A stretch of DNA of 64,000 nt from an uncultured Bacteroidota bacterium. Lineage in GTDB: Bacteria; Bacteroidota; Bacteroidia; Bacteroidales; P3. Both the position numbers and the translations under genes were made by a program. The notes under the pieces are model-generated. The model saw only the letters and a list, made by a program, of their open reading frames with translations. It searched no databases and was not told where the DNA came from. The stretch covers positions 1,999 to 65,998 of the forward strand of contig CACZRR010000025.1 of NCBI GenBank assembly GCA_902783595.1. The letters run 5' to 3'. Position 1 is the stretch's first letter, and the number at the start of each line of letters is the position of its first letter. This document shows positions 5,430 through 19,910 of the stretch, piece by piece.

Positions 5430-5450
5430 CCCCCAACGTAAACCGTTGCG

Positions 5451-5541
5451 CAAAACGCAAAACGTCAAACGTAAAACGTCAAACATCAAACGTAAAACGT
5501 AAAACGTAAAACGTCAAACATCAAACATAAAACGTCAAACC
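5451..5541 (+). repeat. Tandem array of 13 heptamers (consensus TMAAACG)
   Basis: CAAAACG CAAAACG TCAAACG TAAAACG TCAAACA TCAAACG TAAAACG x3 TCAAACA x2 TAAAACG TCAAACC. It fills most of the ettA-to-lipoprotein spacer. Confidence 0.9.
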
Positions 5542-5564
5542 TTAACCCCAAAAACCTCTTTACT

Positions 5565-6701
5565 ATGAAAAAAATCATGCACCTCCTCTGTGCTGCCATG
5601 CTGCTGGTATCCTTCGCGGCATGCACCGAGAAAGACAACGAGAACGGCGGCGACGGCAGCTACGCCTCCCTCATCATCGGCAAATGGAATGTGGACGTCA
5701 TCACCATCAACGGCAACGACATGACGCCACAGAACATGCAGCTCTCCTTCTCCCGCGACGGCAGCGGCGTCATGATCCACAACGGCGTCAGCGAGAACAA
5801 CGGCTTCTCATGGTCCTTCAGCGGCAACGTCATCAACGTCACCACCCACCGTGACGAGTTCTCCTTCACCGTCGACACCATTTCGTCCAGCTTCTGCGCC
5901 TTCCACGGCAGCTACCTCGTCCTCGATCAGGAATACCACGGCGACATACGCTTCATGCTGAGCAAGGTCAGCGGCGGCGGCAACCCCGACCCGGGCGACC
6001 TCGGCATCGGCACCCCCGAGCTCTCCTACAGCACCTCCAACTCCATCACCGTCCATGCCCACGTCACAGGCAGCGTCGGACAATACCTCGACCAGTTCCC
6101 CAACTACTCCTGCGGCATCGTCTGGTGCCCCTCCTGGGACGGCACACCACTCCTGGGACGCAACAACACCATCGTCGCCAACCCCGACTCCGACGGCAAC
6201 TTCGAGATCTCCATCGCACACCTCCAGGTCGAGTCAGAGTACAACATCGTCTCCTGGCTCAAGCTCACACCCACGAGCGACCCCATCTATAGCGACATGC
6301 GCACCTACTCCACCAGCAACGCCCCCGGACAGAACGACACCAACTGGATCAACCTCATCAGCGCCATGCCCACCGCCAGCAGCACCGCCTTCTCCGTCAT
6401 CATCAAGGCCTACTTCGACGGCGACCCCATAGGCATCGGCGTCGTCTACAACACCAGCGGCAACCCCACCCTCAGCGACAACGTCTACAACGGCTTCGAC
6501 CACATCGACATGCAGACCGGCGAGACCGACGCCACCATCCAGCGCATGCAGGAGAACATCGACGGCTCGCGCACCGTGGCAGCACTGATTGGCGGCGTGC
6601 AGCCCGGCACCACCTACCACGTCCGCGGATACATGCAGTTCTCCGACGGCTCCCCCACCATCTACACCGACGAACAGACCGTCACCACATCCGCAAAATA
6701 A
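5565..6701 (+). CDS. Lipoprotein, function unknown
   Basis: 378 aa. Lipobox signal peptide (LLVSFAAC). Ser/Thr/Asn-rich beta-type sequence. Confidence 0.8.
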   Translation: MKKIMHLLCAAMLLVSFAACTEKDNENGGDGSYASLIIGKWNVDVITINGNDMTPQNMQLSFSRDGSGVMIHNGVSENNGFSWSFSGNVINVTTHRDEFSFTVDTISSSFCAFHGSYLVLDQEYHGDIRFMLSKVSGGGNPDPGDLGIGTPELSYSTSNSITVHAHVTGSVGQYLDQFPNYSCGIVWCPSWDGTPLLGRNNTIVANPDSDGNFEISIAHLQVESEYNIVSWLKLTPTSDPIYSDMRTYSTSNAPGQNDTNWINLISAMPTASSTAFSVIIKAYFDGDPIGIGVVYNTSGNPTLSDNVYNGFDHIDMQTGETDATIQRMQENIDGSRTVAALIGGVQPGTTYHVRGYMQFSDGSPTIYTDEQTVTTSAK

Positions 6702-6736
6702 CGGAGATATTCCCTCACACAAACAGAACCATCCAA

Positions 6737-6768
6737 GGGGGCGCCACACACGTGGCGTCCCTTTCTTC
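6737..6768 (+). terminator. Rho-independent terminator
   Basis: ~10-bp GC-rich stem (GGGGCGCCAC / GTGGCGTCCC) with a 4-nt loop, followed by TTTCTTC. Confidence 0.65.
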
Positions 6769-6855
6769 GCTCAAGGATGTTAGCCATCCAGCAAACAAAA
6801 CACCTGTTGAGAAAAGTGAGATTTCCGTACGCTATCTTGTGGACATTTTGTCCAA

Positions 6856-6944
6856 TTGATGTTCGATTGATGTTCGATTGTTGTTCGATTGTTGTTCGAT
6901 TGGCAATCGAACAACAATCGAACATCAGACGAACAAGAAACGAC
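6856..6944. repeat. Palindromic array of 11-nt units (TTGWTGTTCGA x4, then inverted copies)
   Basis: Left arm has 4 tandem 11-mers; the right arm is their reverse complement. 12/12 bp pair around the centre at 6903, and the stem extends imperfectly to ~40 bp. Confidence 0.9.
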
Positions 6945-7031
6945 CATATAAGCATGTTGATATTGTCCAAAGAGCAAAAAAAATGGAGGCGGAGAGGTTA
7001 GGGAAATAAAAAAAATATGGATTTTTCTTCG

Positions 7032-7039
7032 TATCTTTG
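7032..7039 (+). promoter_or_regulatory. -7 promoter box TATCTTTG
   Basis: Matches the Bacteroidota TAnnTTTG consensus, 53 nt upstream of the ATG at 7093. No clear -33 TTTG. Confidence 0.45.
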
Positions 7040-7092
7040 CCTAACGAAGATATGTCTTTAATAACCATCAACCCTCTTAAATACAGTACACT

Positions 7093-7818
7093 ATGATGAA
7101 AAAAGTGATTACCATCATCGCCCTCGCCCTCTTCATGGGCAGCGCTACGGCACAGGACATCGACGAGAAAAACATCAAGATCGGCGACATCACCCTCGCC
7201 GGCTACGAGCTGACCCTCGACAAGGAGGCACGCCTCACGCAGGACGCCCTGCTGGCACGCCTCAAGGAGGCCGACCTCAAGGCCAAGAAGGACGGCGACA
7301 ATATCGTCGTGCGCGACCAGCTCTTCGCCGAGGTGAGTGCCGACCCCATCACGCTCTATGCCGTGGTCAAGAAGGACGGCAAGGAGCGCTGCACCGTAGC
7401 CCTCTGCGCCACGCCCACCGACCCCGCCATCGACGCCAAGAAGGTCAAGGATGGCGTCCGCCGCTTCCTGCAAAACTTCCCACCCTACGTGACGCGCTAC
7501 GAGGCGGCACGCAATGCGGAGAATGAGGAGGCCGTGCTCAAGAAAGCCCTCAAGAAGCAGGCCGCCGCCGTGGCAGCGGTAGAGAAGATAGAGAAGAGCA
7601 TCAAGAACGACCAGGACAAGATCATCGACAAGAAGAAGGACATCGAGAAGTATCAGGAGAAGATCAAGGAGTGTCAGAAGGACATCAAGGACCTCGAAGC
7701 CAATATCGCCAAGAGCCAGGACAAGAAGGCCGAGGCACAGAAAGAGGTCGAGGCCGAGAACAAGAACGTCAAAACCGTTGAAGGACAGGTCGAGTTCTTC
7801 CGCAGCATGGCCCGCTGA
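7093..7818 (+). CDS. Secreted protein with C-terminal coiled coil, function unknown
   Basis: 241 aa. Signal peptide (IALALFMGSATAQ). Lys/Glu-rich heptad-like C-terminal half. Confidence 0.75.
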   Translation: MMKKVITIIALALFMGSATAQDIDEKNIKIGDITLAGYELTLDKEARLTQDALLARLKEADLKAKKDGDNIVVRDQLFAEVSADPITLYAVVKKDGKERCTVALCATPTDPAIDAKKVKDGVRRFLQNFPPYVTRYEAARNAENEEAVLKKALKKQAAAVAAVEKIEKSIKNDQDKIIDKKKDIEKYQEKIKECQKDIKDLEANIAKSQDKKAEAQKEVEAENKNVKTVEGQVEFFRSMAR

Positions 7819-7862
7819 CAAAACCTTGCAACCAGTTTTCTCTATCTAATGGCACACGCGGT

Positions 7863-10800
7863 ATGACTGAGTTCACACATCTGCACGTACACTCGCACTA
7901 TTCGATGCTCGACGGGATGTCGAAGATCCCCGATCTGGTGAAGAAGGCCAAGAAGAACGGTATGTATGCCCTGGCCCTGACGGACCACGGCAATATGTTT
8001 GGCATCAAGGACTTCCTGGACACGGTGCAGAAGGAGAACAAGGGGCGTGGCGAGGGGGAGCCGCTGTTCAAGCCCATTGTGGGCATCGAGGCCTACTGTG
8101 CGCGGCGCACGCTCTACGACAAGGATAAGAACTTCAAGAGCATCAACCCCGAGACGGGGCGCGAGCGTGTGGTGGACCGCAGCGGCTACCACCTGATCCT
8201 GCTGGCCAAGAACCTGCAGGGCTACCACTCGCTGTGCAAGCTGACGTCGATAGCATATACCGACGGTTTCTACGACCGTCCGCGCATCGACCATGCGCTG
8301 CTGGAGAAGTACCACGAGGGGGTGATATGCAGCTCCGCCTGCCTGGGCGGCGAGGTGCCGCAGCTGATCATGGAGGGCGACCTGGAGGGTGCCGAGAAGG
8401 CAGTGGTGTGGTTCAAGGAGCTCTTCGGCGACGACTACTACATCGAGCTGATGCGTCACAAGACCGACAAGCCCAATGCCAACACCGACACCTACCGGTG
8501 GCAGATGAAGGTGGAGCCCGAGCTGGTGCGTCTGGCGCGGAAGTACGACATCAAGCTCATCGCCACCAACGACGCGCACTTTGTCGAGGAGGAGCATGGC
8601 GAGGCGCACGACCACCTGATCTGCCTGGCCACGCAGAAAGACTACGACGACCCGAACCGCATGCACTACACCAAGCAGGAGTGGCTGAAGAGCCCCGACG
8701 AGATGGCGGAGGTTTTTGCCGACCTGCCGGAGGCGTTGGCGAACACCATGGAGGTGGCGGAGAAGGTGGAGGTGTACAGCATAGACAGCGACCCGCTGAT
8801 GCCCGTCTTCCCCATCCCCGAGAGCTTCGGCAAGGAGGAGGAGTGGCGTGAGAAATTCACGGAGCAGCAGCTCTTCGACGAGTTCACGCGCAACGAGAAG
8901 GGCGAGGTGGTGATGGAGCAGGAGGCCGCTGAGAAGAAGATCAAGAAGCTGGGGGGCTACGACAAGCTGTACCGCATCAAGTTCGAGGCCGACTACCTGG
9001 AGCACCTGGTGTGGCAGGGTGCGCGGAAACGCTACCTGATGAGGGCGGAAGCTAATAACTCCGACCTTCGACCTCCGACCTCCGACCTGGAAATCAAGGA
9101 GGCCCTCAGCGAGGAGCAGCGCGAGCGCATCGTCTTCGAGCTGCACACCATCAAGACCATGGGCTTCCCCGGCTACTTCCTCATCGTGAGCGACTATATC
9201 CGTGCCGCGCGTGAGGAGCTGGGCGTCAGCGTAGGTCCCGGCCGCGGCAGTGCGGCAGGCAGCGTGGTGGCCTACTGCCTGTGGATCACGGACCTCGACC
9301 CCTTGCGCTACGACCTGCTGTTCGAGCGCTTCCTGAACCCCGACCGTATCTCGCTGCCCGATATCGACGTCGACTTCGACGATGCGGGGCGCGGCAAGGT
9401 GCTGGAGTGGGTCACCAAGAAATACGGCAAAGAGCGTGTGGCGCATATCATCACCTATGGCACCATGGCCACCAAGAGCTCCATCGCCGACGTGGGACGT
9501 GTGGAGAAAGTGCCGCTGAGCACCGTCAACCAGCTCAAGGGCTACATCCCCGAGCGCAACTTCCCCGACGGTCTGAAGGGCGACGACGGCAAGCCGCTGG
9601 CCAAGCCGCCGAAGGTGAACCTCAAGAACTGCTACAAGTACGTCCCGGAACTCAAGGCCATCATGCAGGACGGTCCCGACGACCTGCGGCGCATGCTCAC
9701 CTATGCCGAGGAACTCGAGGACACCAACCGCCAGATCGGCATCCACGCCTGCGGCGTCATCATAGGCTCGCAGGACATCACCAACATAGCGCCTGTCTGC
9801 GTCATCAACGACAAGGAGAGCGGCGAGGATGTGCTGGTGACGCAGTACGATGGTCATGTGGTGGAGAACGTAGGCCTCATCAAGATGGACTTCCTGGGGC
9901 TGAAAAACCTCACCATCATCAAGAACTGCATCCGCATGGTGAAGAAGCGCACGGGCGAGGAGATCGACATCGACCACCTGCCGCTGGACGACGAGCTGAC
10001 CTACAAGCTCTTCTGCGAGGGCAACACCGTGGGTGTGTTCCAGTTTGAAAGTGCGGGCATGCAGAAGTACCTGCGGGAGTTGCAGCCCCACGTCATCGAC
10101 GACCTCATCGCCATGAACGCCCTCTACCGCCCGGGTCCCATGGACAACATACCCGAATTCATCGACCGCAAGCAGGGCCGCAAGCCCATCAGCTACGACC
10201 TGCCGGTGATGGAGAAATACCTGAAGGAGACCTACGGCATCACCGTCTATCAGGAGCAGGTGATGTTGCTGAGCCGTCTACTGGCGGGCTTCACACGCGG
10301 CCAGAGCGACACATTGCGCAAGGCCATGGGCAAGAAGCAGATCGACAAGATGAACGAGCTGGAGGTGCTCTTCTACGAGGGCGGCGAGAAGAACGGCCAC
10401 CCGCGGGAGGTGCTGAACAAGATCTGGGAGGAGTGGAAGAAATTCGCCAGCTACGCCTTCAACAAGAGCCATGCCGCCTGCTACTCGTGGGTGGCGTACC
10501 AGACGGCCTACCTCAAGGCGCACTACCCTGCCGAGTATATGGCTGCCGTGATGACGAGTGCCCAAACCGACATCAGCCGCGTGCGCGAGCTCATGGACGA
10601 CTGCAAGAAGCACGGCATCGAGGTGGCGGCGCCGAGCGTCAACAGCAGCGAAATGGACTTCAGCGTCGATGCCGACGGCAAGATACGCTTCGGGTTGCAG
10701 GCCATCAGCGGCATGGGCGAAGCCGCCTCGGGGGTGATCATCGCCGAGCGCGAGAAGAACGGTCCCTACCAGGACATCTTCGACTTCCTGAAGCGCATCG

Positions 10801-11735
10801 ACATGCACTCCGTGAACAAGAAGAACATGGAGGTGCTGGTGAAGGCGGGCGCCTTCGACGGTGTGGGCACGATGCACCGTGCGCAGTATTTCTACAAAGA
10901 GAACCAGCTGGAGACCACGCCCACGTACCTCGACCTGCTGGTGCGCTGGGCCATACGGCGCCAGGACGGCGCGGCGAGCAACCAGATGAGCATCTTCAGC
11001 ATGAGCGCAGAGCTTGCCGAGGAGGACCATCCGCCGATACCCGTCTGCGACGAGTGGAGCACCCTCGACCGCTGCCGCGCCGAGAAGGAGGTCATCTCCA
11101 CCTATCTCTCGGGGCATCCCCTCGACGACTTCCGCTACGAGATGAAGCTCTTCACCAACACCCCCGTCAGCGCCCTCGCCAACCTCGAGGCCCTCGTCGG
11201 CAAAGAGGTCACCTTCGGCGGCATGGTGTCGGGCGTGAAAGGCGGCATCTCCTCCAGGGGCAACCCCTACGGCTCTATGGTCATCGACGACTACACCGGC
11301 AGCTACGAGTTGCGCCTCTACGACGAGGAGTACACCAACTTCAAGAACCTCTTCATCGACGGCACCTTCATCCACTGCCGTGCCACCGTGCGCAGCACCA
11401 CCTATACCGACAAGAAGACCGGCGCCGAGAAGAGCTTCACGCGTATGCGCATCCTCTCCATGACGCTGCTCTCCGGCGTGCTGGACAAGTATATCGCGCG
11501 TGTGGCTTTCACCGTGCCCCTCGAGCGTGTGGACACCGCCTTCTGCCGCCAGCTCGAGCGGCTGGCCAAGCGCCACAAAGGCAGCGTGCCGCTACAGGCC
11601 ATCGTCGTCGACGCCTCGCAGAAGCTCACCCTCACCCTCAACACCACGGCTTTGCGCGTCAACCCCCACGACATCCTCGGCGAATTGGAGCAGTTGCCCG
11701 GCGTCACCGCCGTGAAGCCCATCCCAAAAAGTTAA
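7863..11735 (+). CDS. dnaE: DNA polymerase III subunit alpha
   Basis: 1290 aa. PHP domain start (FTHLHVHSHYSMLDG), GFPGYFLIV, the PDIDVDF catalytic motif and a C-terminal OB region. Confidence 0.97.
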   Translation: MTEFTHLHVHSHYSMLDGMSKIPDLVKKAKKNGMYALALTDHGNMFGIKDFLDTVQKENKGRGEGEPLFKPIVGIEAYCARRTLYDKDKNFKSINPETGRERVVDRSGYHLILLAKNLQGYHSLCKLTSIAYTDGFYDRPRIDHALLEKYHEGVICSSACLGGEVPQLIMEGDLEGAEKAVVWFKELFGDDYYIELMRHKTDKPNANTDTYRWQMKVEPELVRLARKYDIKLIATNDAHFVEEEHGEAHDHLICLATQKDYDDPNRMHYTKQEWLKSPDEMAEVFADLPEALANTMEVAEKVEVYSIDSDPLMPVFPIPESFGKEEEWREKFTEQQLFDEFTRNEKGEVVMEQEAAEKKIKKLGGYDKLYRIKFEADYLEHLVWQGARKRYLMRAEANNSDLRPPTSDLEIKEALSEEQRERIVFELHTIKTMGFPGYFLIVSDYIRAAREELGVSVGPGRGSAAGSVVAYCLWITDLDPLRYDLLFERFLNPDRISLPDIDVDFDDAGRGKVLEWVTKKYGKERVAHIITYGTMATKSSIADVGRVEKVPLSTVNQLKGYIPERNFPDGLKGDDGKPLAKPPKVNLKNCYKYVPELKAIMQDGPDDLRRMLTYAEELEDTNRQIGIHACGVIIGSQDITNIAPVCVINDKESGEDVLVTQYDGHVVENVGLIKMDFLGLKNLTIIKNCIRMVKKRTGEEIDIDHLPLDDELTYKLFCEGNTVGVFQFESAGMQKYLRELQPHVIDDLIAMNALYRPGPMDNIPEFIDRKQGRKPISYDLPVMEKYLKETYGITVYQEQVMLLSRLLAGFTRGQSDTLRKAMGKKQIDKMNELEVLFYEGGEKNGHPREVLNKIWEEWKKFASYAFNKSHAACYSWVAYQTAYLKAHYPAEYMAAVMTSAQTDISRVRELMDDCKKHGIEVAAPSVNSSEMDFSVDADGKIRFGLQAISGMGEAASGVIIAEREKNGPYQDIFDFLKRIDMHSVNKKNMEVLVKAGAFDGVGTMHRAQYFYKENQLETTPTYLDLLVRWAIRRQDGAASNQMSIFSMSAELAEEDHPPIPVCDEWSTLDRCRAEKEVISTYLSGHPLDDFRYEMKLFTNTPVSALANLEALVGKEVTFGGMVSGVKGGISSRGNPYGSMVIDDYTGSYELRLYDEEYTNFKNLFIDGTFIHCRATVRSTTYTDKKTGAEKSFTRMRILSMTLLSGVLDKYIARVAFTVPLERVDTAFCRQLERLAKRHKGSVPLQAIVVDASQKLTLTLNTTALRVNPHDILGELEQLPGVTAVKPIPKS
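9041..9087 (+). repeat. Heptamer element inside dnaE (short GAGGGCGGAAG arm, loop, then TCCGACC-type x4)
   Basis: TCCGACC TTCGACC TCCGACC TCCGACC at 9060-9087, translated in-frame as NSDLRPPTSDL. Confidence 0.85.
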
Positions 11736-11736
11736 T

Positions 11737-11771
11737 CCACTTTCCACTTTCCGTTTTCCACTTTCCACTCC
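11737..11771 (+). repeat. Five tandem heptamers (CCACTTT family) forming the dnaE-to-GSCFA spacer
   Basis: CCACTTT CCACTTT CCGTTTT CCACTTT CCACTCC lies between the dnaE TAA (11733-11735) and the ATG at 11774. Confidence 0.9.
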
Positions 11772-11773
11772 CC

Positions 11774-12733
11774 ATGATAGCCCTCAACACTCCCGTCAGT
11801 GTCTCTCCCCTCCCCTTCACGGTGGACTTCGACAGCGGCATCGTCACCCTGGGATCGTGCTTTGCCGACGAGGTGGCACAGCGTCTGCTCGACGGTGGCT
11901 TCCGCGTCGACGCCAACCCTTTCGGCACCCTCTACAACCCTGCCTCCATCGCCGCGGCGTTGCAGCGCATCATCGACGACCGCGAGGTGGGTGCCGCCGA
12001 CCTTGTCGAGCGCGACGGCCTCTGGCATTCGTGGCACCACCACGGCGCCTTCTCGCGGCGGAGTGCTGAGGAGTGCCTCGACGCCTGCAACGGGCGTCTG
12101 CATGAGGCACACCGTCACCTGCGCCAGGCGCGGCTGCTCATGGTCACCTTCGGCACCGCCTGGATCTATGAGTTGAGGTCGGAGGTCGGAGGTCGGAAGG
12201 CGGCAGCTTCACAAGACACCTCCGACCTCCGTCTTCCGACCTCCGCCTTCCACGTTGTGGCCAACTGTCACAAAGTGCCGCCGCAGGCCTTTGTGCGGCG
12301 CATGATGGATGTCGACGAGATCGTGCAGCTGTGGCGTCCCCTGCTGCAACAGCTCTCCACTTTCAACCCTCACCTTTCCGTCATCTTCACCGTCTCCCCC
12401 ATCCGTCACCTGGCCGACGGTGCCCACGGCAACCAGCTCAGCAAGAGCACCCTGCTATTGGCTGTCGACCCACTTTCCACTCACATGGTGAGCCCGTCGA
12501 ACCACCACTCTCCACTTTCCACTTTCTACTTCCCCTCTTACGAGATTGTGCTCGACGAGCTGCGCGACTACCGCTACTACGGTCAGGATATGACGCATCC
12601 CACGGCGCTGGCTGTCGACATCGTCTACGAGCGTCTGCAGGGCGCCATCATGACCCCCGCCGTCGTGCAGCAGGCGCACCTCAACGCCAAGCGTCAGCGC
12701 CGCGACCGGCACATACCCCTGCACCAGTCATAA
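11774..12733 (+). CDS. GSCFA-family protein
   Basis: 319 aa from the ATG at 11774. Has the eponymous motif (VTLGSCFADEV) plus TFGTAW, VVANCHK, SPIRH and YFPSYEI..DELRDYR blocks. Confidence 0.85.
   Translation: MIALNTPVSVSPLPFTVDFDSGIVTLGSCFADEVAQRLLDGGFRVDANPFGTLYNPASIAAALQRIIDDREVGAADLVERDGLWHSWHHHGAFSRRSAEECLDACNGRLHEAHRHLRQARLLMVTFGTAWIYELRSEVGGRKAAASQDTSDLRLPTSAFHVVANCHKVPPQAFVRRMMDVDEIVQLWRPLLQQLSTFNPHLSVIFTVSPIRHLADGAHGNQLSKSTLLLAVDPLSTHMVSPSNHHSPLSTFYFPSYEIVLDELRDYRYYGQDMTHPTALAVDIVYERLQGAIMTPAVVQQAHLNAKRQRRDRHIPLHQS
12175..12251 (+). repeat. Inverted-repeat heptamer hairpin inside the GSCFA gene
   Basis: Left arm is GAGGTCG x3 + GAAGGCG (12175-12202). Loop is ~17-19 nt. Right arm is CTCCGAC CTCCGTC TTCCGAC CTCCGCC (12220-12247). 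Read in-frame as RSEVGGRKAAASQDTSDLRLPTSAF. Confidence 0.9.
12470..12534 (+). repeat. Second heptamer element (CCACTTT family) inside the GSCFA gene
   Basis: CCACTTT CCACTCA, a 21-nt spacer, then CCACTCT CCACTTT CCACTTT CTACTTC. Read in-frame as PLSTHMVSPSNHHSPLSTFYF. Confidence 0.8.
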
Positions 12734-12737
12734 ATCA

Positions 12738-13028
12738 TTATTTTCCCTTTCTATTGGGATTCTTGGGGAACCAGCCTTTTTCCACCCGCTCGCGCTGCTT
12801 GAACAGCTCGAGGATGGACCATAGGCTCGAGAAAGCCACGACGCCGAGGATGGTCGAGGGAATGACGGCCTCTGTGAGCAGCGACCCCGCGACGCAAACC
12901 GCAGCCACCAGCAGGAACACCCACCAGCAGCGTGTGCCGAGATAGTATTCCGCCTTGATAACGATGGGGTGGAAAAGGCCTATGCACAAGAAAGAAGAGA
13001 CACCGATGATTATGCCGACAAAGTTCAT
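12738..13028 (-). CDS. Small integral membrane protein (DUF4491-like)
   Basis: 96 aa with three hydrophobic segments and a basic C-terminus. The family assignment is from memory only. Confidence 0.55.
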   Translation of the reverse strand: MNFVGIIIGVSSFLCIGLFHPIVIKAEYYLGTRCWWVFLLVAAVCVAGSLLTEAVIPSTILGVVAFSSLWSILELFKQRERVEKGWFPKNPNRKGK

Positions 13029-13073
13029 TTTGGAAGGGTTAGTCAGAATTTAACATTTAGTATTTAGAAATCC

Positions 13074-13697
13074 TCAGATGGGTATGACCACGAACACCAG
13101 CGCATCCCAGAGGGCGTGGCTGACCACGAGTGCCGGCAGCGCCCTGGGGCAGAGCCGGTAGAGGAGACCCCATACGGCCCCTGCCGTCAGCGCCGCCATC
13201 ACCAGCATGAAGTTGCCCGACCAGATATGCACGAGGGCATAGATGGCCGTGGTGACGAGGAAGGCCGTGGTGGCGCCATGCTGTCGTGCCAGGGTGCGCT
13301 GCACATATCCGCGCCAGAAGAGCTCCTCGGCGGGGCCGATGACGAGCAGCAGCAGCGCGGCGATGGCCGCGGGCGGAAGGCCCGTCTTCATGGCATAGAC
13401 ATTGTCCACCTGAGTGCGGGCGAAGTCGAACATAGCGGCGGAGGCCTTGTCGCCCACCCAGAACACACCCCACAGCAGCAGCGCGATGACGACGCCTGCC
13501 GTCAGCTGCAGCAGCGGTTTCTCCACCTTCATCAGTTCCCTGCTGTCGGGCGTGAAGAGCAGTGCCAGGGTGGTGAGCACGACACCCGAGAGGGTCATCA
13601 CGATCCAGAAATTGGGGCGTCCCTGCGTCCATGGGGAGAACATATAGAACCAGAGCAGGGCGGCGACGGCGATGGCGACGATGAGGTGGCGTCTCAT
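13074..13697 (-). CDS. CPBP-family intramembrane glutamic endopeptidase (CAAX protease-like)
   Basis: 207 aa from the ATG at 13697. Motifs EELFWRG and HIW/HALWD in TM helices. The start overlaps the menA-like stop by 4 nt. Confidence 0.8.
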   Translation of the reverse strand: MRRHLIVAIAVAALLWFYMFSPWTQGRPNFWIVMTLSGVVLTTLALLFTPDSRELMKVEKPLLQLTAGVVIALLLWGVFWVGDKASAAMFDFARTQVDNVYAMKTGLPPAAIAALLLLVIGPAEELFWRGYVQRTLARQHGATTAFLVTTAIYALVHIWSGNFMLVMAALTAGAVWGLLYRLCPRALPALVVSHALWDALVFVVIPI

Positions 13698-14596
13698 AGC
13701 AATCCGGCTATTATCAACCCTATGGTGAGGAGACCCGAGAAGGCCATCTGCAACTTGGAGGAGGCGATATCGAGGCCCTTCATGGCGTCGAGGCCCAGGT
13801 GGCGGTACTGTGCTGCCCGGCGGAAATTCTTGTAGGCCGGCACCACGGCGACAAGGCTGAGCAACGCCAGCGGGTGGAGCAGGCCTGCCGCCACATAGAG
13901 CACGAGGCAAAGGAATGGCAACACCATGTAGCAGCAGTAGAGACGCGCCGACGTCTGGATGCCGAGCAGCATGCCGAAGGTCTTGATGCCTGCCTCGCGG
14001 TCGCTGTTGGTGTCGAAGGTGTTGTTGGCGTGGAGCACCGACACGGTGATGATGCCCACGGGCAGGGCCAGCAGCAGTGTGTCGACGACGACGGTGCCGG
14101 TGATGGCGCAGGAGGTGCCGAGGAACGCCAGCACGCCGAAGATGAGGAAAATGTCGAGGTCGCCGAGGGCGTGGTATTTCAGGAAAGAGTAGAGCACTGT
14201 CAGCAGCACGCCCGCGGCACCCACGACGAGCACACCGGGGCCGCTGAGCAGCGTGATGACGATGCCGACGGCTATGCCGACGGCGAAGAGCAGGATGCTG
14301 AAAACAAGGTATTCGCGAGGCTCGAAGGTCTTGAACACCAGGTTGGGGACGGCGAAGGCGCGCTCGTTGTCGACGCCACACTTATAGTCCTTGTAGTCGC
14401 TCAGCACATTGCCGGCGGCGTGCAGCACCACGATGCCCAGCAGCGACAGGAGGAGGCAGAGCCACGGCATAGTGCCGTCGGGCACAAGGCCGCGGCTGAA
14501 GAGGTAGGCGAAGCAGACAGCCACAGGCATGGCGGAGACAGGGAAAGACCAGTAGCGGGTCACCGCAAGCCACTCTTTGAGCGTGTGTTTCATCAT
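13694..14596 (-). CDS. menA: UbiA-family prenyltransferase, likely 1,4-dihydroxy-2-naphthoate polyprenyltransferase
   Basis: 300 aa with ~8 TM segments. Asp-rich motifs (NVLSDYKDY, NNTFDTNSDREAG) typical of MenA/UbiA. Confidence 0.75.
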   Translation of the reverse strand: MMKHTLKEWLAVTRYWSFPVSAMPVAVCFAYLFSRGLVPDGTMPWLCLLLSLLGIVVLHAAGNVLSDYKDYKCGVDNERAFAVPNLVFKTFEPREYLVFSILLFAVGIAVGIVITLLSGPGVLVVGAAGVLLTVLYSFLKYHALGDLDIFLIFGVLAFLGTSCAITGTVVVDTLLLALPVGIITVSVLHANNTFDTNSDREAGIKTFGMLLGIQTSARLYCCYMVLPFLCLVLYVAAGLLHPLALLSLVAVVPAYKNFRRAAQYRHLGLDAMKGLDIASSKLQMAFSGLLTIGLIIAGLL

Positions 14597-14711
14597 CGTT
14601 CTTTCTTGTGCTCATAGCAACGCATAGGGCACTCGTTTATTGCCTTCGGACAATAAAAAAAGAGAGGCTGCGTTATTGCTTTTGAAAATCGATTTTTTCC
14701 ACTAAAACGCC

Positions 14712-15218
14712 ATGATTATGAAAAAGATTCTTATTGCCATGATGGCTTTTGCGACACTCTTTGCTGTGTCGTGCAACAAAGACGACGAAGAGGAGAATGC
14801 CACCCTCCAAGGACGCTGGGACGCTCCGCACTCTGCCGACGACATGGGAGACATCGCCTTTGTCGCCCTCTTCGGGGACGAGAACCTCGACCTGTATATC
14901 ATCCCCTGGGGGCAGCACATGAAGGGCACCTACTCCATGAACAACGGGGTGATCACCTACAACATCACGGAGGCCTACCAGGCCTATACGGATGTCTCCT
15001 ACGATGGCGAAGGCAACATGACCAGCTGGTCGTGGATGGCCGGCAACCTGGATGCCACCACCCTCACGCTTGCCGAAGGCTACGATTGGTACGCCATGAA
15101 CGGGGAGAATTTCAACCAAGCCCAAGAGGGCTTTGGCGAGTTTGAATTCAACATCAAAGGCAGCACCGCGAAGAGCACGCTGGTGGGCCTCCCCGATCTG
15201 ACCTTCTACAAGAAATAG
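14712..15218 (+). CDS. Lipoprotein, function unknown
   Basis: 168 aa with a lipobox (FATLFAVSC). Confidence 0.7.
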   Translation: MIMKKILIAMMAFATLFAVSCNKDDEEENATLQGRWDAPHSADDMGDIAFVALFGDENLDLYIIPWGQHMKGTYSMNNGVITYNITEAYQAYTDVSYDGEGNMTSWSWMAGNLDATTLTLAEGYDWYAMNGENFNQAQEGFGEFEFNIKGSTAKSTLVGLPDLTFYKK

Positions 15219-15253
15219 CACATCGTAGGGGCGATCCCCCCACCAGAGACGAG

Positions 15254-15283
15254 AAGACCCGTGGGTTTCCACGGGTCTTTTTT
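15254..15283 (+). terminator. Rho-independent terminator
   Basis: 11-bp stem AAGACCCGTGG/CCACGGGTCTT with loop GTTT, followed by a T-run. Confidence 0.8.
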
Positions 15284-15368
15284 ATATCGTCGTTCGCTTG
15301 GCCACTGGGGAGGAGCCCTCGTGGAGGCAAAATCATCATTTTTAGGTATTGCAGACGTGGAAATTGTG

Positions 15369-15376
15369 TATCTTTG
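15369..15376 (+). promoter_or_regulatory. -7 promoter box TATCTTTG
   Basis: TAnnTTTG match 20 nt upstream of the ATG at 15397. Confidence 0.45.
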
Positions 15377-15396
15377 CAGCATAATCGCACAAGGCC

Positions 15397-16155
15397 ATGA
15401 ATGCTTTAATTGTCGGAATACTAATGCCTTTGGCGGGGACGATGCTGGGGTCGGCTTTCGTGTTCTTTATGCGGAAGGAGATCCCCGACCGGCTGCAGAA
15501 GACGCTGCTGGGCTTCGCCAGCGGCGTGATGGTGGCGGCGAGCGTGTGGTCGCTGCTGATACCGAGTATCGAGATGGCGGGCGAGGGTGTTGTCCCTGCC
15601 GCCGTGGGGTTCCTCGCGGGCATCGCCTTCCTGCTGCTGATTGACGAGCTGACGCCCCACCTGCATGTCGGCGCGCAGAATGCCGAGGGTCCTCGCAGCC
15701 GCCTGTCGCGCACCATGATGCTGGCGCTGGCTGTCACCATCCACAACCTGCCCGAGGGTATGGCCGTGGGCGTGGTGTTCGCCGGAGAGGCGCAGGGCTT
15801 GACCCTCAGCGCCGCCCTGGCGGTAGCGGTCGGCATCGCCATACAGAACATCCCCGAGGGGGCTATCATCTCAATGCCCATGCATGCCGAGGGCAACTCA
15901 CGAGGCAAATCATTCCTCATCGGCACCCTCAGCGGCGTGGTGGAGCCCATAGGATCCGTAGCCATCCTGCTGCTGGCGGGTGTGCTGGGTGTGGCGCTGC
16001 CCTACTTGTTGGCCTTCGCCGCCGGCGCCATGATGTATGTGGTGGTGGAAGAGCTCATCCCCGAGACCGCCCAAGGGCGCCACACCAACCTCTCCACCAT
16101 CGGTTTCGCCATAGGCTTCGTGCTAATGATGGCGATGGATGTGGTTATGGGGTAA
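15397..16155 (+). CDS. ZIP-family metal (zinc) transporter
   Basis: 252 aa. TM protein with ZupT-like motifs (HNLPEGMAVG, QNIPEG). Confidence 0.88.
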   Translation: MNALIVGILMPLAGTMLGSAFVFFMRKEIPDRLQKTLLGFASGVMVAASVWSLLIPSIEMAGEGVVPAAVGFLAGIAFLLLIDELTPHLHVGAQNAEGPRSRLSRTMMLALAVTIHNLPEGMAVGVVFAGEAQGLTLSAALAVAVGIAIQNIPEGAIISMPMHAEGNSRGKSFLIGTLSGVVEPIGSVAILLLAGVLGVALPYLLAFAAGAMMYVVVEELIPETAQGRHTNLSTIGFAIGFVLMMAMDVVMG

Positions 16156-16200
16156 TACGTTTTACGCTTTCGGAAAGTCGTTAAAATAAACCATTCGGAT

Positions 16201-16783: not shown

Positions 16784-16817
16784 TAAATAGCTCACGTCCG
16801 GAGAGGAGGAGGACCCT

Positions 16818-17528
16818 ATGACACTCATAGAAGCCATCGCCGCCAGGCATAGTGTGCGGCAATATTTGGACAAGCCCATCGACGCCACGACAGTGGATGC
16901 CATACGTGCCTGCATCGACGAATGCAATGCCGCCAGTGGGCTGCACATGCAGCTTGTCACAAACGAGCGGACGGCCTTCGCCTCAGGGCTGGCGCGCTAC
17001 GGCCGTTTCCGAGGTGTGAGCAACTATATTGTGCTGGCAGGACGGCGGGGTCACGAGAGCGACGAGCTGATGGGCTACTACGGCGAGAAAGTGGTATTGC
17101 TGATGCAGACCTTAGGGCTCAATAGCTGCTGGGTGGGGCTTACCTTCAAGGATGTGAGGGGCGCCTACACCCTCGACGAGGGCGAGAAGATGCGCCTCGT
17201 TATTGCTTGCGGCCATGGGGCCTCGCAGGGCGTACCGCACCGGCAGAGGCACACCTGGGAGGACTTTGTGGTGAACCACACAGGCCTGCCGCTACCCGAA
17301 TGGTTCATCGCCGGCGTGCAGGCTGCCGAACAGGCCCCCACGGCAATCCACCAGCAGAAATTTGAATTCGAATGGTTGGGGGACGAAAAAGTCGTTGCAC
17401 GGCGCCGCATGGCCCTCAACAGCTACACCTACATCGACCTCGGCATCGCCAAGCTGCACTTCGAGATAGCAACGAATGAGATGAGGCTCCAGCAGCTGGG
17501 GGATGTTCCCCTCCTGAAAATGATATGA
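16818..17528 (+). CDS. Nitroreductase-family protein
   Basis: 236 aa. N-terminus IEAIAARHSVRQY is typical of nitroreductase-fold proteins. Confidence 0.8.
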   Translation: MTLIEAIAARHSVRQYLDKPIDATTVDAIRACIDECNAASGLHMQLVTNERTAFASGLARYGRFRGVSNYIVLAGRRGHESDELMGYYGEKVVLLMQTLGLNSCWVGLTFKDVRGAYTLDEGEKMRLVIACGHGASQGVPHRQRHTWEDFVVNHTGLPLPEWFIAGVQAAEQAPTAIHQQKFEFEWLGDEKVVARRRMALNSYTYIDLGIAKLHFEIATNEMRLQQLGDVPLLKMI

Positions 17529-17818
17529 TCCAGATAACATCCACCCATATCATCCTGACCTACCTTATAGTCATCACCGTGGTGGCCTTCTTCGCCTACG
17601 GCATCGACAAAAGGAGAGCCCAACGTGGCGGACGACGCACCCCCGAGGCGGTGCTGCTATGGCTGGCGGCGGCAGGCGGTAGTATAGGGGCATGGATGGG
17701 GATGAAGGTATGGCGTCACAAGACGCTGCACAAGAAATTCAGGTACGGTGTACCACTCATCCTGGTCGGTCAGATTGTGGTGGTGCTGGTATTCTGCTGG
17801 CTGGCGATGGGACAATAG
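17525..17818 (+). CDS. DUF1294-family membrane protein
   Basis: 97 aa. YGIDKRRAQRG..R.PE..L, GGSIGAWMGM and RHKT..KF are characteristic. 4-nt overlap with the upstream gene. Confidence 0.8.
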   Translation: MIQITSTHIILTYLIVITVVAFFAYGIDKRRAQRGGRRTPEAVLLWLAAAGGSIGAWMGMKVWRHKTLHKKFRYGVPLILVGQIVVVLVFCWLAMGQ

Positions 17819-17835
17819 ACGACAAAGTTTTTTCA

Positions 17836-18750
17836 ATGACGATGAGCCACTCCCGCCCCTTCTACGTTGCATTTGCCCCACTGCAAGGATATACCGGCGC
17901 TATTTACCGGCAGGCGCATCACCTGTGCGCCGGTGGCGTGGACGAATACTACACCCCCTTTCTGCGCATTGAGCGAGACGCCGTAAGGGGCAAAGACCTG
18001 CGCGACGTAGCCCCCGCCGCATGCGAGGGAGTGCCGACAGTACCACAGGTGATTGCCAATGGTGGCGACGAGTTCGCCCGATTGTGCGATGCGCTACAAG
18101 GACAAGGATGGAACCGTATAGACCTCAACATGGGATGTCCTTTCCCCATGCAGGTGAGGGCTGGCCGCGGCTGCGGATTATTGCAGCATAGGGAACGTGT
18201 TGAAGAGATACGGCGCGAGATGTTGCGGCGCAGTGATGTGGCGTTCTCCGTCAAGATGCGCCTCGGCCAAGAGAGCGAAACAGAAGGCGAGGCTATCATG
18301 TCCATCGTGAACGCTATGCCTTTGCTGCACGTCACATTGCATCCTCGGCTGGGACGACAACAGTACAAAGGGGAGGCCGACCGTGATGCCTTTATTCGTT
18401 TTGCGCAACGCTGCCAACATCCCATGGTATACAATGGTGACCTAACAGAGGTGAGCCAACACGAATGGGATGCGCTGCACATCAAAGGCGTGATGCTCGG
18501 GCGCGGTCTCCTTGCACGTCCCTGGATGTTATGTGAGAGAGATCCCCAAGAGGTGGTCGGCGAGATGCATGCTCTCATCTATCGGCATGCGACCACCCGA
18601 TTGTGTGGCGACAGCCAGATCCTTGCGCACCTACATGCCTTTTGGGAATATCTCGACATACCCCATCGCCTGAAGAAACCCATCATGAAAGCCACCACGC
18701 TTAGCCGCTACAATGAGGCCGTTGCCAACTACACAAAAAAAATATCATAG
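17836..18750 (+). CDS. tRNA-dihydrouridine synthase family protein
   Basis: 304 aa from the ATG at 17836. APLQGYT and IDLNMGCP motifs of the Dus TIM-barrel. Confidence 0.8.
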   Translation: MTMSHSRPFYVAFAPLQGYTGAIYRQAHHLCAGGVDEYYTPFLRIERDAVRGKDLRDVAPAACEGVPTVPQVIANGGDEFARLCDALQGQGWNRIDLNMGCPFPMQVRAGRGCGLLQHRERVEEIRREMLRRSDVAFSVKMRLGQESETEGEAIMSIVNAMPLLHVTLHPRLGRQQYKGEADRDAFIRFAQRCQHPMVYNGDLTEVSQHEWDALHIKGVMLGRGLLARPWMLCERDPQEVVGEMHALIYRHATTRLCGDSQILAHLHAFWEYLDIPHRLKKPIMKATTLSRYNEAVANYTKKIS

Positions 18751-18790
18751 AAGGAACAGTTCCTCGGCGTTCATTTTCATTATTTTTTTG

Positions 18791-18798
18791 TATCTTTG
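18791..18798 (+). promoter_or_regulatory. -7 promoter box TATCTTTG
   Basis: TAnnTTTG match 56 nt upstream of the ddl ATG. Confidence 0.45.
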
Positions 18799-18854
18799 CA
18801 GACCATATGGCTCCCCTTCAGAGAGTCTAATATCTTAAGAATAAGAACACTGCA

Positions 18855-19880
18855 ATGAAAAAGAATATAGCCCTCGTGATGGGTGGCTTCAGCGGCGAGC
18901 ACGACATCTCGATTGCCAGCGGACGTCAGGTCTATGAGCAGTTGGACCATAGTCGCTACAATGTGTACAAAATTGTGGTGGATCGTGCGGGCTGGTACTG
19001 GGAATGCGGCGACGAGCACAGACCCATCGACCGCGGCGACTTCACCGTCATCGATGCCGGCGTCACGGTTCATTTTGATTTAGCCTTTATCATCGTGCAT
19101 GGCAACCCCGGCGAAAACGGCGTGTTGCAAGGTTACTTCGATATGCTGGGCATCCGCTACACCACCTGTGGTTACTACACCTCCGCACTCACCTTCCATA
19201 AAGGCTACTGCAACCCCGTAGTAAAAAACTTTGGCATCGTCAAAGTAGCCAACTCGGTTCTGCTATATAAAGAACAGTGGGAAGTGGAAAGTGGGAAGTG
19301 GAAAGATGGAATAGTGCCAACCGACTCTCCGCAATCCTCTCTTCATCTCCCCGTTTTCGTGAAGCCGGCTGCCGGCGGCAGCAGCGTTGCCACCACCAAG
19401 GTGAAGAGCCCCGAGGCCCTGCCCGCCGCCATCCGTGAGGCTTTCACAGAAGATAGCGCAGTGCTGATAGAGGAAGCCATTGTAGGACGCGAGTTTGACT
19501 GCGGCGTATTCCGCAATGCAGACGGAGAATTGCTCCTGTTCCCTATCACCGAAATTATACCCAAAGGTGGACATGAATTCTTCGACTATGCTGCCAAGTA
19601 TGAGGGTTTCAGCAGCGAGGTGACCCCCGCCGAGGTCGACGAGCACACGGCACAACACATACAGGCGGTGTCGGCACAGCTCTACGAACGCCTGGGATGC
19701 AAAGGCATCGTACGCTTCGACTACATCCTCGACAGCGCCAACAACGAGCTCTACTTCCTGGAGGTGAATACCATCCCGGGACAGAGTGCAGAGAGCATCG
19801 TACCCAAACAAGCCCGTGCCATGGGCATCACGCCCGCCCAGCTCTACCAGATGAGCATCGAGGCGGCGATGAATAAGTGA
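18855..19880 (+). CDS. ddl: D-alanine--D-alanine ligase
   Basis: 341 aa. GGFSGEHDISIASG, HGNPGENG, FVKPAAGGSS and EVNTIPG motifs. Confidence 0.92.
   Translation: MKKNIALVMGGFSGEHDISIASGRQVYEQLDHSRYNVYKIVVDRAGWYWECGDEHRPIDRGDFTVIDAGVTVHFDLAFIIVHGNPGENGVLQGYFDMLGIRYTTCGYYTSALTFHKGYCNPVVKNFGIVKVANSVLLYKEQWEVESGKWKDGIVPTDSPQSSLHLPVFVKPAAGGSSVATTKVKSPEALPAAIREAFTEDSAVLIEEAIVGREFDCGVFRNADGELLLFPITEIIPKGGHEFFDYAAKYEGFSSEVTPAEVDEHTAQHIQAVSAQLYERLGCKGIVRFDYILDSANNELYFLEVNTIPGQSAESIVPKQARAMGITPAQLYQMSIEAAMNK
19277..19311 (+). repeat. Five tandem heptamers (AGTGGRA family) inside ddl
   Basis: AGTGGGA AGTGGAA AGTGGGA AGTGGAA AGATGGA, read in-frame as QWEVESGKWKDG. Confidence 0.85.
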
Positions 19881-19910
19881 ATAGTGAAAAATTAAAAGTG
19901 AAAAGTTAGA
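19876..19910 (+). repeat. Five tandem heptamers (AGTGAAA family) forming the ddl-to-asnS spacer
   Basis: AGTGAAT AGTGAAA AATTAAA AGTGAAA AGTTAGA, running from the ddl stop codon to 1 nt before the asnS ATG. Confidence 0.85.

Follow-up and report, generated by a model that had tools for sequence, protein, structure and literature searches.

The cyanobacterial STRR heptamers of Calothrix and Anabaena comprise several tandem heptanucleotide families dispersed in one genome, with the unit often changing from one array to its neighbor; to our knowledge, in-frame occupancy of conserved enzymes is not a described feature of them. RPEs are palindromic, dispersed elements of 100-150 bp with a family consensus. 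REPs are imperfect palindromes of 20-40 nt whose conserved head is GTAG or CGTC and which have no internal tandem periodicity, and we know of none found in frame in genes. MITEs possess terminal inverted repeats, a target-site duplication and conserved internal sequence. In phase-variable contingency SSRs, a variable surface gene has its frame or its promoter spacing shifted by a change in copy number.

The closest described systems are the heptameric repeats of Xanthomonas (unit GGGAATC) and Nostoc (unit GGGGAYT; Rehm et al. 2015, PMC4692102). The Xanthomonas repeats prefer four units, form 70-75 convergent inverted pairs per genome, lie no more than 50 bp from a start or stop codon, overlap with the stop included, are intragenic in 7-11% of cases and vary between close relatives (PMC4692102). 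Heptanucleotide long simple-sequence repeats were surveyed by Mrazek et al. 2007, a study represented here by its citation in PMC4692102 and PMC4679880. TAACTGA direct repeats are present in Beggiatoaceae, cyanobacteria and a few Bacteroidetes, including Paludibacter (MacGregor 2015, PMC4679880). Like the arrays described below, they are heptamer direct repeats of two to six units found mostly a few nucleotides upstream of start codons, with some copies directly after stop codons or inside genes, and other heptamers share those intergenic regions; unlike our arrays, which have many units and commonly form hairpin pairs, they consist of a single unit across phyla with one inverted set reported (PMC4679880).

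The window analyzed here is a 64-kb stretch of DNA from the metagenome-assembled genome of an uncultured rumen/gut Bacteroidales bacterium. Seven heptamer elements (eight TRF arrays) and one 11-mer hairpin are clustered between 5.4 and 20 kb, confirming the concentration of arrays noted in the first-pass annotation. TRF and our own periodicity scan were concordant on this inventory and detected no period-7 array elsewhere in the window (20-64 kb). The arrays are not chance occurrences, because three exact heptamer copies are expected only about 0.006 times in 1.5 Mb. The elements, with two distant remnants, are:

5449-5540, plus strand: single-arm array of AAAACGT/CAAACGT, 12.7 units, between the ettA stop codon (5427-5429) and a lipoprotein start (5565)
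6855-6902 and 6904-6943, no strand assigned: intergenic 11-mer hairpin, ATTGWTGTTCG in 4.4 units, a 1-nt gap, then an inverted CGAACAACAAT-type arm of 3.6 units
9059-9088, plus strand: CTCCGAC, 4.3 units, an in-frame part of dnaE coding for residues 399-409 (NSDLRPPTSDL)
11736-11769, plus strand: TCCACTT, 4.9 units, all but the last 4 nt of the spacer between the dnaE stop codon (11733-11735) and the GSCFA ATG (11774)
12175-12197 and 12218-12251, plus strand: in-frame GSCFA hairpin, GAGGTCG in 3.3-4 units, a loop of about 20 nt and inverted ACCTCCG in 4-4.7 units, encoding residues ~134-160
12470-12481 (1.7 units) and 12505-12531 (3.9 units), plus strand: CCACTTT family, in frame in a second GSCFA loop
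19276-19316, plus strand: AGTGGRA, 5.6 units, in frame in ddl, encoding residues 141-154
19870-19906, plus strand: AGTGAAA-like, 5.1 units, including the ddl stop codon (19878-19880) and ending 5 nt before the asnS ATG (19912)
16158-16170, minus strand: two-unit AAAGCGT-AAAACG remnant, directly past the stop codon of a ZIP gene, one mismatch, weak
63902-63914, plus strand: two-unit AAAACGC-AAAACG remnant, intergenic, exact match, weak

The figure of four to five units per arm given in the first-pass annotation describes all of the arrays except AAAACGT, with its 12.7 units. Its distant AAAACG-type remnants are weak matches of two units only, and are nevertheless probably real because chance alone would give the whole pattern 0.12 times in the window. 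Mirroring into hairpins was seen in two elements: the 11-mer hairpin (6850-6948) has a fold energy of -33.1 kcal/mol (z = -8.7) and the GSCFA hairpin (12168-12256) one of -24.6 kcal/mol (z = -4.7). Single arms are unstructured, with a fold energy of 0 for 11736-11769. The ddl array at 19276-19316 represents the left half of an old hairpin; in the window the right arm has decayed and folding is lost. The ddl ortholog of L086 retains a (TTCCACT)n right arm, and that of L088 retains four AGTGGAA units.

The region is not special. The same arrays are found across the Bacteroidales and in many metagenomic lineages besides. They are also present in phage contigs, two of which (L213 and L237) carry an array at nearly every gene junction. 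In a census of 1.5 Mb of related Bacteroidales loci, periods 7 (174 arrays), 8 (52) and 11 (52) outnumber periods 6, 9 and 12. Arrays with two, three, four, five, six and seven copies number 35, 48, 66, 53, 9 and 7 (median 4.4), so that copy number has a mode at 4-5 and falls steeply above 5.5, whereas periods 9 and 12 decay monotonically. The units are AT-rich (GC 0.32 across loci), and the 174 arrays represent 99 distinct units that form a continuum rather than discrete families. A unit is shared within a genome at 4.7 times the between-genome rate (permutation p ~5e-4), and unit families recur at unrelated sites, in agreement with the earlier view that these are not isolated microsatellites. 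Only 33-35% of arrays are intragenic, compared with 72% of random positions; 27% begin no more than 6 nt downstream of a stop codon (7% for random positions) and 19% finish no more than 6 nt upstream of a start codon (6%), an approximately threefold enrichment right at the codons themselves. Single arms are commoner than hairpins, which number 70 overall. All 10 Bacteroidales heptamer hairpins, and 29 of the 31 scorable metagenomic hairpins (32 found), have the purine/G-rich arm on the 5' side, and polarity is reversed in the 11-mer hairpins (6/6). Three hairpins of L039 have identical arms and unrelated loops.

Three proteins of the window carry arrays in frame, DnaE (7863-11735), the GSCFA protein (11774-12733) and Ddl (18855-19880), as previously claimed, and ValRS of L031 and L036 is a further example. 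In the three window proteins the arrays occupy loops inserted relative to the orthologous proteins. The DnaE array sits in a clade-specific insertion of about 20 amino acids whose sequence is different in every species; the same site holds an 11-mer array and about 60 amino acids in L010 and is empty in most Bacteroidales. The first GSCFA loop has other inserts in 23 of 63 orthologs. In the AlphaFold model of the GSCFA protein (mean pLDDT 84), the array-coded segments are the only low-confidence stretches, with pLDDT below 50 at residues 137-158, encoded by the hairpin, and at residues 238-244, encoded by the second-loop array. The suggested preference for gene ends and surface linkers is borne out, the arrays lying preferentially at gene ends and in disordered loops. 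Reading frames are preserved; the second-loop array differs between L031 and L036 by exactly 21 nt. The unit of the ddl array differs between orthologs (AGTGGAA versus AGTGGTC/AGTGACC) within conserved flanks, and the two arms of this element evolve independently.

Presence/absence polymorphism among related strains, a test that the first-pass annotation had set for its own reading, does exist, because what separates strains of 98.6-99.2% identity is one or two units or a whole spacer. The 5449-5540 array is 14 nt shorter in strain L245 (99.1% identical) and is absent from strains L241-244 (98.6% identical), which have an unrelated 77-nt spacer at this site; no local seed for the AAAACGT array was found in the array-free allele (L241 spacer). 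The 11736-11769 spacer has one extra 8-nt unit in strain L083 (99.2% identical), and length differences of +7 and +14 nt, and of exactly +21 nt inside a gene, separate L031 and L036. The 11-mer hairpin at 6855-6943 is conserved in strain L241. The AGTGAAA-like array 3' of ddl is missing in L086, L087 and L088, and many related genomes have no array at the corresponding junctions. Across species the same loops and junctions are occupied by different units, including different heptamers at the dnaE-GSCFA junction. At the valS site, wholly different arrays are found in genomes with 98-99% identical flanks, and more distant relatives are empty. Such abrupt replacements could alternatively be old alleles with flanks homogenized by recombination and are therefore not decisive on mechanism.

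The arrays belong to a known, mechanistically unexplained class of bacterial heptamer repeats and are not a Rickettsia-type mobile element. The same syndrome has been described for the Xanthomonas and Nostoc repeats (PMC4692102): tandem head-to-tail 7-nt units dispersed at many loci (here 174 arrays in 1.5 Mb of related loci), a preference for about four units (here a median of 4.4), frequent convergent inverted pairs with stem-loop potential, placement between ORFs of the same direction and no more than 50 bp from a start or stop codon, with stop overlap and an intragenic minority, and variation in length and sequence between close relatives in the same gene context. The arrays described here differ in their Bacteroidales host, in having many unit families per genome rather than one dominant G-rich unit, in their 8- and 11-nt analogues, and in an intragenic share of about one third, these copies occupying loops of essential enzymes in frame (DnaE, Ddl and ValRS). 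Their units are also AT-rich and without G-tracts, and the G-quadruplex account of the four-unit preference is therefore inapplicable; a G-quadruplex-forming subclass was rejected because the window units (AAAACGT, GGTCGGA, AAAGTGG and AGTGAAA) contain no GGG run, G-tracts of at least three being required for four units to form a G4, and unit GC is 0.32 across the loci. The STRR heptamers are similar in having several dispersed heptanucleotide families per genome and differ in units and taxon.

An RPE-like element system, as proposed in the first-pass annotation, is not upheld. The arrays resemble RPEs in being palindromic, dispersed and in frame in conserved protein genes at tolerated surface positions (DnaE, GSCFA, Ddl and, in L031 and L036, ValRS), but a 7-nt unit is all that they share, their loops are variable and they change in unit steps. 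RPE identity was rejected because there is no consensus of ~100-150 bp, copies with the same arm differ in loops and flanks, and units are so diverse; nor is there a common loop, terminus or target-site duplication. MITE identity was rejected because flanking direct repeats are absent from every window element and internal loops are variable. REP/BIME elements with their RAYT are likewise short, extragenic, hairpin-forming, located at gene ends and polymorphic in presence, but no GTAG/CGTC head is visible on the window elements, which are tandem-periodic and in some cases in frame. A phase-variable contingency SSR was rejected because the hosts are essential housekeeping genes and the sole intragenic length difference observed (21 nt) keeps the frame. 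A Pfam scan of ~40 window proteins found no transposase (Y1 included), integrase, reverse transcriptase or other mobiliser, as had been claimed, and an Rfam scan of the window returned tRNA only.

We propose, with a probability of about 0.55, that the arrays belong with the dispersed heptamer repeats of Xanthomonas, Nostoc/Calothrix (STRR) and Beggiatoaceae as long simple-sequence repeats with heptameric (and also 8- and 11-nt) units, generated by slipped synthesis and strand switching and filtered by selection; this is the most likely mechanism. During replication or repair, a short unit would be copied reiteratively to give ~30-40 nt of new DNA per arm, and a strand switch would often add an inverted second arm. 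Later remodeling would include unit gain and loss, homogenization and replacement of whole segments. Purifying selection would spare arrays only at harmless sites (gene junctions, last codons and disordered surface loops) and within genes would permit only stop-free units with a total length divisible by three. The unit-sized strain differences (+8 in L083, -14 in L245, and +7/+14/+21 in L031 versus L036) support slippage, and the intragenic deficit, the stop/start enrichment and the low-pLDDT GSCFA segments support the selective filter. In the comparison with strain L083, substitutions are concentrated in the arrays and convert a degenerate unit to the consensus. The prevalence of periods 7, 8 and 11, the copy-number mode, the change of the ddl unit in place, the lack of transposon features and the match to the published Xanthomonas and TAACTGA repeats also favor the proposal. 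For some junction copies, the usefulness of a structure-free leader ahead of a start codon may be a further reason for retention. A stronger version of this idea, in which junction arrays are selected cis-elements, for example structure-free leaders or standby sites for Shine-Dalgarno-independent translation initiation or binding arrays for single-strand binders of the S1 or cold-shock type, with hairpins as terminators or RNA-stability elements, is compatible with slippage and strand switching since it accounts for retention and not for origin. It draws on the enrichment at start and stop codons, the near-zero fold energy of single arms, the array-bearing junctions of L213 and L237, the layout of L237, where arrays are followed by TTCCCC-ATG much as the window has ...CCACT-CCCC-ATG, and the ends of all three single-arm intergenic arrays of the window, 4-25 nt upstream of a co-directional start codon; the same position and hypothesis have been put forward for the TAACTGA repeats (PMC4679880). 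We regard it as doubtful as the principal account: it is inapplicable to the one third of arrays that lie inside genes, the units show great diversity and are present in both orientations, near-identical strains differ by gain, loss and replacement of arrays with genes unchanged, and corresponding junctions are empty in many related genomes.

It is unlikely that the arrays form a family of nonautonomous mobile hairpins (MITE-, REP- or RPE-like) whose spread to new sites depends on an enzyme from another part of the genome, as in the RPE-like reading of the first-pass annotation. Unit families common to unrelated loci of one genome, the sharp boundaries of presence/absence alleles and the occupation of the same protein loops by different elements would fit such copying, as would an 11-mer hairpin family (TGTTCTTCGAT / ATCGAAGAACA) present in L005, L017 (twice) and L023, and a composite AAAGTGG...TTTTAGC module with a conserved spacer found three times in phage contig L237. 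However, the compared copies have no conserved termini, loops or target duplications, the L039 hairpins being a case in point; the continuum of units, the independent evolution of arms, the rarity of hairpins relative to single arms and variation in 7-nt steps also argue against it, and the absence of a transposase from the window is alone not decisive. Least probable, and very unlikely, is that arrays are written in trans by a templated polymerase (reverse-transcriptase-/telomerase-like or a primase-polymerase) that heals breaks with purine-rich repeats at both 3' ends, end joining then producing an array, a variable junction and an inverted array. Convergent polarity with the purine/G-rich arm 5' on both strands (the word convergent is used also in PMC4692102), identical arms with variable loops, four to five units per arm, genome-typical units, whole-segment replacement at one site and arrays in phage DNA would all be expected. 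Against this, a candidate enzyme or template was not identified, genomes have several unit families (99 distinct units overall), 11-mer hairpins have the opposite polarity, polarity could instead stem from selection (against, for instance, a 5' arm that is C-rich, exposed and Rho-loading), and strain differences of unit size are in line with slippage.

Against our preferred reading, simple local slippage does not predict a copy-number mode instead of monotonic decay, one unit at unrelated loci of a genome, the seedless array-free allele, the valS array replacement or strict hairpin polarity.

The arrays of the window belong to a class of repeat that is already known and poorly understood. Among long simple repeats, heptamers show the strongest over-representation in bacteria, yet to our knowledge detailed studies cover only a few genomes; we found nothing in the literature specific to heptamer or hairpin arrays in Bacteroidales. 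TRF and an independent periodicity scan of the whole window restricted the period-7 arrays to 5.4-20 kb, which confirms the clustering of repeat arrays described in the first-pass annotation. The genes of this region are ordinary housekeeping genes, and four elements are intragenic and in frame: one in dnaE, two in the GSCFA gene and one in ddl.

Repeat arrays and neighboring genes in the window
3759-5429, ettA
5449-5540, AAAACGT/CAAACGT array of 12.7 units, beginning 20 nt past the ettA stop
5565-6701, lipoprotein gene
6855-6902 and 6904-6943, 11-mer pair
7863-11735, dnaE
9059-9088, CTCCGAC array of 4.3 units, in frame within dnaE
11736-11769, TCCACTT array of 4.9 units, adjoining the dnaE stop and 4 nt short of the next ATG
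11774-12733, GSCFA-family gene
12175-12197, GAGGTCG array, in frame within the GSCFA gene
12218-12251, ACCTCCG array, inverse of the GAGGTCG array, in frame within the GSCFA gene
12505-12531, CCACTTT array of 3.9 units, plus another 1.7 at 12470-12481, in frame within the GSCFA gene
18855-19880, ddl
19276-19316, AGTGGRA array of 5.6 units, in frame within ddl
19870-19906, AGTGAAA-like array of 5.1 units, including the ddl stop codon and 5 nt short of the asnS ATG
19912-21315, asnS

Folded as a single strand, 6850-6948 reached -33.1 kcal/mol (z = -8.7 vs shuffled sequence) and 12168-12256 reached -24.6 kcal/mol (z = -4.7). The single-arm arrays of the window gave no structure at all; no hairpin partner was found for the dnaE array, its fold being no better than shuffles. 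The two AAAACG remnants far from the cluster each match two units; the chance expectation of their pattern in the window is 0.12. The heptamer elements are concentrated in the GC-richer part of the window, the array-rich 2000-16000 having a GC content of 0.58-0.62 vs 0.49-0.56 elsewhere.

The window sequence is identical to scaffold_156 of ENA assembly ERZ1024273; MAGs of uncultured Bacteroidales from the rumen and gut are its closest named relatives. Our census covered the window and 80 genomic loci around GSCFA orthologs (1.5 Mb), in which arrays with at least three copies numbered 174 for period 7, 52 each for periods 8 and 11, 25 for period 6, 24 for period 9 and 11 for period 12. The copy number of period-7 arrays has its mode at four to five units and falls sharply above 5.5 (35, 48, 66, 53, 9 and 7 arrays with 2, 3, 4, 5, 6 and 7 copies), and that of periods 9 and 12 decays monotonically. 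The units are diverse, with 99 distinct forms, and AT-rich (GC 0.32 vs 0.50 overall). Array density depends strongly on lineage: loci of P. distasonis have none, and those of P. hominis, sp. ASD2025 and sp. PF5-6 have several each. Separate arrays share an exact unit within a genome at 4.7 times the between-genome rate (13 of 286 pairs, where about 3 were expected; permutation p ~5e-4). The 11-mer hairpin family of the window (TGTTCTTCGAT / ATCGAAGAACA) recurs in three retrieved loci, L005, L017 (twice) and L023. Because the gene calls were approximate and ORF-based, array positions are estimates: about one-third of arrays lie inside long ORFs, vs 72% of random positions, and among non-ORF arrays 27% start no more than 6 nt past a stop codon, vs 7% at random, and 19% end no more than 6 nt ahead of a start codon, vs 6% at random. 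Many of the stop-adjacent arrays contain the stop codon itself.

Hairpins, composed of an array, a loop and an inverted array, numbered 70 across all loci, with a median arm of 4.4 units, a median loop of 22 nt and an arm-size correlation of 0.51; one locus (L039) has three copies with the same arms and different loops. The purine/G-rich arm was 5' on both strands in 10/10 Bacteroidales heptamer hairpins and, among the matches listed, in 29 of the 31 scorable metagenomic ones (32 found) retrieved with (GGTCGGA)x3, a polarity-blind search, and the 11-mer hairpins had the opposite polarity in 6/6, although effective numbers are smaller since some cases are related copies.

The closest known counterparts are the GGGAATC repeats of Xanthomonas and the GGGGAYT repeats of Nostoc described by Rehm et al. 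2015 (PMC4692102). These favor four units, form convergent pairs at close spacing (70-75 in each genome), lie between aligned ORFs no more than 50 bp from a start or stop codon, sometimes overlapping the stop, have 7-11% intragenic copies (more in Nostoc) and vary markedly between close relatives; an earlier proposal quoted there holds that 7 nt matches the stretch of DNA that the polymerase grips, which would favor slippage (PMC4692102). Every testable defining feature of these repeats is found here except G-quadruplex potential, which is absent from our units. TAACTGA repeats lie a few nucleotides ahead of start codons and extend to Bacteroidetes, Paludibacter among them, and binding of S1, Csp or Csr was proposed for them (MacGregor 2015, PMC4679880). 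The first-pass annotation had interpreted the arrays as a possible RPE-like system; they lack the conserved 100-150-bp consensus that defines RPEs, so this part of its interpretation falls, whereas the presence/absence polymorphism that it named as a check among related strains is found. The terminal repeats and target duplication that define MITEs are also lacking, and the GTAG/CGTC head of REP/RAYT elements was seen on none of the window elements. A CRISPR-like array was rejected, the units being 7-11 nt long, head to tail and without spacers. DnaA-box titration, prompted by the resemblance of TTTCCAC units, was dropped, as it does not suit the remaining unit families.

Arrays within genes are insertions, located in loops that tolerate them. 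The GSCFA protein has 319 aa in the window vs 284-289 aa in insert-free orthologs, and in the ortholog alignment the extra residues fall exactly at the hairpin site (loop 1, after TFGTAWIYE) and the CCACTTT array site (loop 2, before YFPSYE). The AlphaFold model based on this alignment is confident overall (mean pLDDT 84, pTM 0.84) and drops below pLDDT 50 only at residues 137-158 and 238-244, the two array-coded segments. The DnaE array lies within an insertion of about 20 residues that is exclusive to the window's clade and differs in sequence in each species, and at the same site the DnaE of L010 has some 60 additional residues and an 11-mer array. The Ddl array is an insertion common only to relatives at about 81% identity. 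GSCFA loop 1 has inserts in 23/63 orthologs, as single-arm arrays or hairpins of varied units (AGGTGAA, GGAATCA, AGTGGTC and others), and loop 2 and the dnaE-GSCFA junction are likewise recurrently occupied. The loop motif CAAGACA/CAGGACA, common to the window, L001 and L002 at the first GSCFA site, probably reflects common descent; no conserved loop motif was seen across the other hairpins. A short palindromic insert of another kind, translated as ...TPQPPHL..(G/S)EGE.., occupies loops where other species have heptamer hairpins (L007, L009, P0021 and P0029 in GSCFA loop 1; P0177 and P0232 in Ddl), and its presence in two unrelated proteins is suggestive of a second family of dispersed hairpins that exploits these tolerant positions.

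Comparison of close relatives indicates how the arrays change. In L083, which is 99.2% identical to the window, the dnaE-GSCFA spacer is one unit longer, and the hairpin has a cluster of substitutions that bring a degenerate unit into line with the consensus; in L245 (99.1%) the AAAACGT array is shorter by two units. This array is absent from L241-244, where an unrelated 77-nt segment stands in place of window 5425-5543 between flanks 98.6% identical upstream and 97.8% downstream. Between L031 and L036 (96% identical) the non-genic arrays differ by 7 and 14 nt, one of them at a gene junction, and the difference inside the GSCFA gene is exactly 21 nt. Their valyl-tRNA synthetase genes contain entirely different array segments of 65-71 nt at one site (L031 ~19990-20060, L036 12296-12360), coding for ...AESLEEAQRLSTLDFGLSTNLV... 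vs ...CEGDPNKEMVNGKCPNGKWI..., with flanks 98-99% identical and more distant relatives insert-free; the AAATGG-type unit also codes for similar peptides in GSCFA loop 2 of L040 and L054. Such abrupt differences could be one-step replacements or old alleles with recombination-homogenized flanks, and as the two look alike we rejected the valS and ettA-spacer alleles as proof of the former. The ddl element is old: both arms are present in L086, where the left-arm unit differs, and the right arm is decayed in L088 and lost in the window.

Other differences were seen between the same relatives. L083 is without 1,275 nt corresponding to window 13142-14416, the Rce1-like/UbiA gene region, and a short stretch of microhomology, CACGA, marks the junction; either a true deletion or an assembly artifact could explain the difference. 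Downstream of the lipoprotein gene, L241 12903-13234 is an unrelated segment of about 330 nt in place of window 6702-6816, with another terminator hairpin and a 72-aa ORF. Homology restarts just ahead of the conserved 11-mer hairpin, whose central loop base differs (TTGGCAA vs TTGCCAA), equivalent to a loop inversion.

Arrays of this kind are widespread. With (GGTCGGA)x3, a query from the window's own unit family, the matches listed included more than 120 metagenomic contigs, drawn from a wide range of unrelated habitats, about one-quarter of these contigs being hairpins. Given those habitats, we rejected the scan as a proxy census of the window's species; it shows wide spread of the arrays, not that species' own copy number. 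Common Bacteroidales units also occur in viral contigs. Two from IMG/VR, L213 and L237, encode tail fiber, endolysin, anti-repressor and HNH proteins and have an array at nearly all gene junctions (13 arrays over 8.4 kb and 17 over 9.5 kb, respectively), and L210 has 32 arrays in 13.8 kb. L237 contains three occurrences of a composite module (AAAGTGG array, conserved spacer, TTTTAGC array) and, at its gene junctions, the array is followed by TTCCCC-ATG, the same layout as ...CCACT-CCCC-ATG(11774) in the window.

We consider it somewhat better than even (about 0.55) that the arrays are heptameric long simple-sequence repeats generated by slippage with strand switching and filtered by selection. 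Reiterative slipped synthesis would generate and remodel the arrays, occasionally accompanied by strand switching, and selection would confine them to junctions and disordered loops. Simple local slippage does not predict the copy-number mode, within-genome unit sharing, hairpin polarity or segment replacement, findings that leave room for three alternatives. Functional retention at junctions, which is compatible with slippage and selection, is rather unlikely. A family of elements mobilized in trans is a doubtful explanation; as the first-pass annotation had stated, the window is without a transposase or mobilizer, and we found no encoded transposase, integrase or reverse transcriptase there, only housekeeping functions among the approximately 40 proteins scanned, and only a tRNA in Rfam at the gathering threshold. 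Dedicated trans-acting templated synthesis, by an RT-/telomerase-like enzyme or a primase-polymerase adding about four to five short purine-rich repeats to both 3' ends of a chromosomal break, is improbable. Such an activity would explain why, as a rule across phyla, the purine/G-rich arm lies 5' on both strands, why the central junction varies, why arms are bounded in length and units typical of the genome, and why whole segments are replaced at hot spots, including those in essential genes and phage genomes.

The same syndrome, in which arrays have four to five units, form inverted pairs that converge and lie close to stop or start codons, occurs in gut and rumen Bacteroidales, many other environmental lineages and phages. 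The published G-quadruplex rationale for the four-unit preference cannot be general, because the preference and the convergent pairing hold without G-quadruplex-capable units; that units lacking this capacity display the same syndrome speaks for a cause that is general, either mechanistic or selective. A one-unit slip in the in-frame arrays of DnaE, Ddl and ValRS would be lethal, and these arrays therefore offer a natural system in which to measure slippage and repair. A practical effect is length heterogeneity and lineage-specific low-complexity inserts in MAG marker proteins.

The window contains another dispersed intergenic repeat of about 130 nt, at 42040-42170 and 58205-58335, with copies approximately 85-90% identical. 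They share the exact 17-mer CACACTGATTTACAACA (42093-42109 and 58258-58274; chance expectation none), followed by an 11-mer array (CCGCTCCCATA-type), and the + strand of the repeat is rich in C. The repeat may represent a promoter module, a small RNA or a further family of elements.
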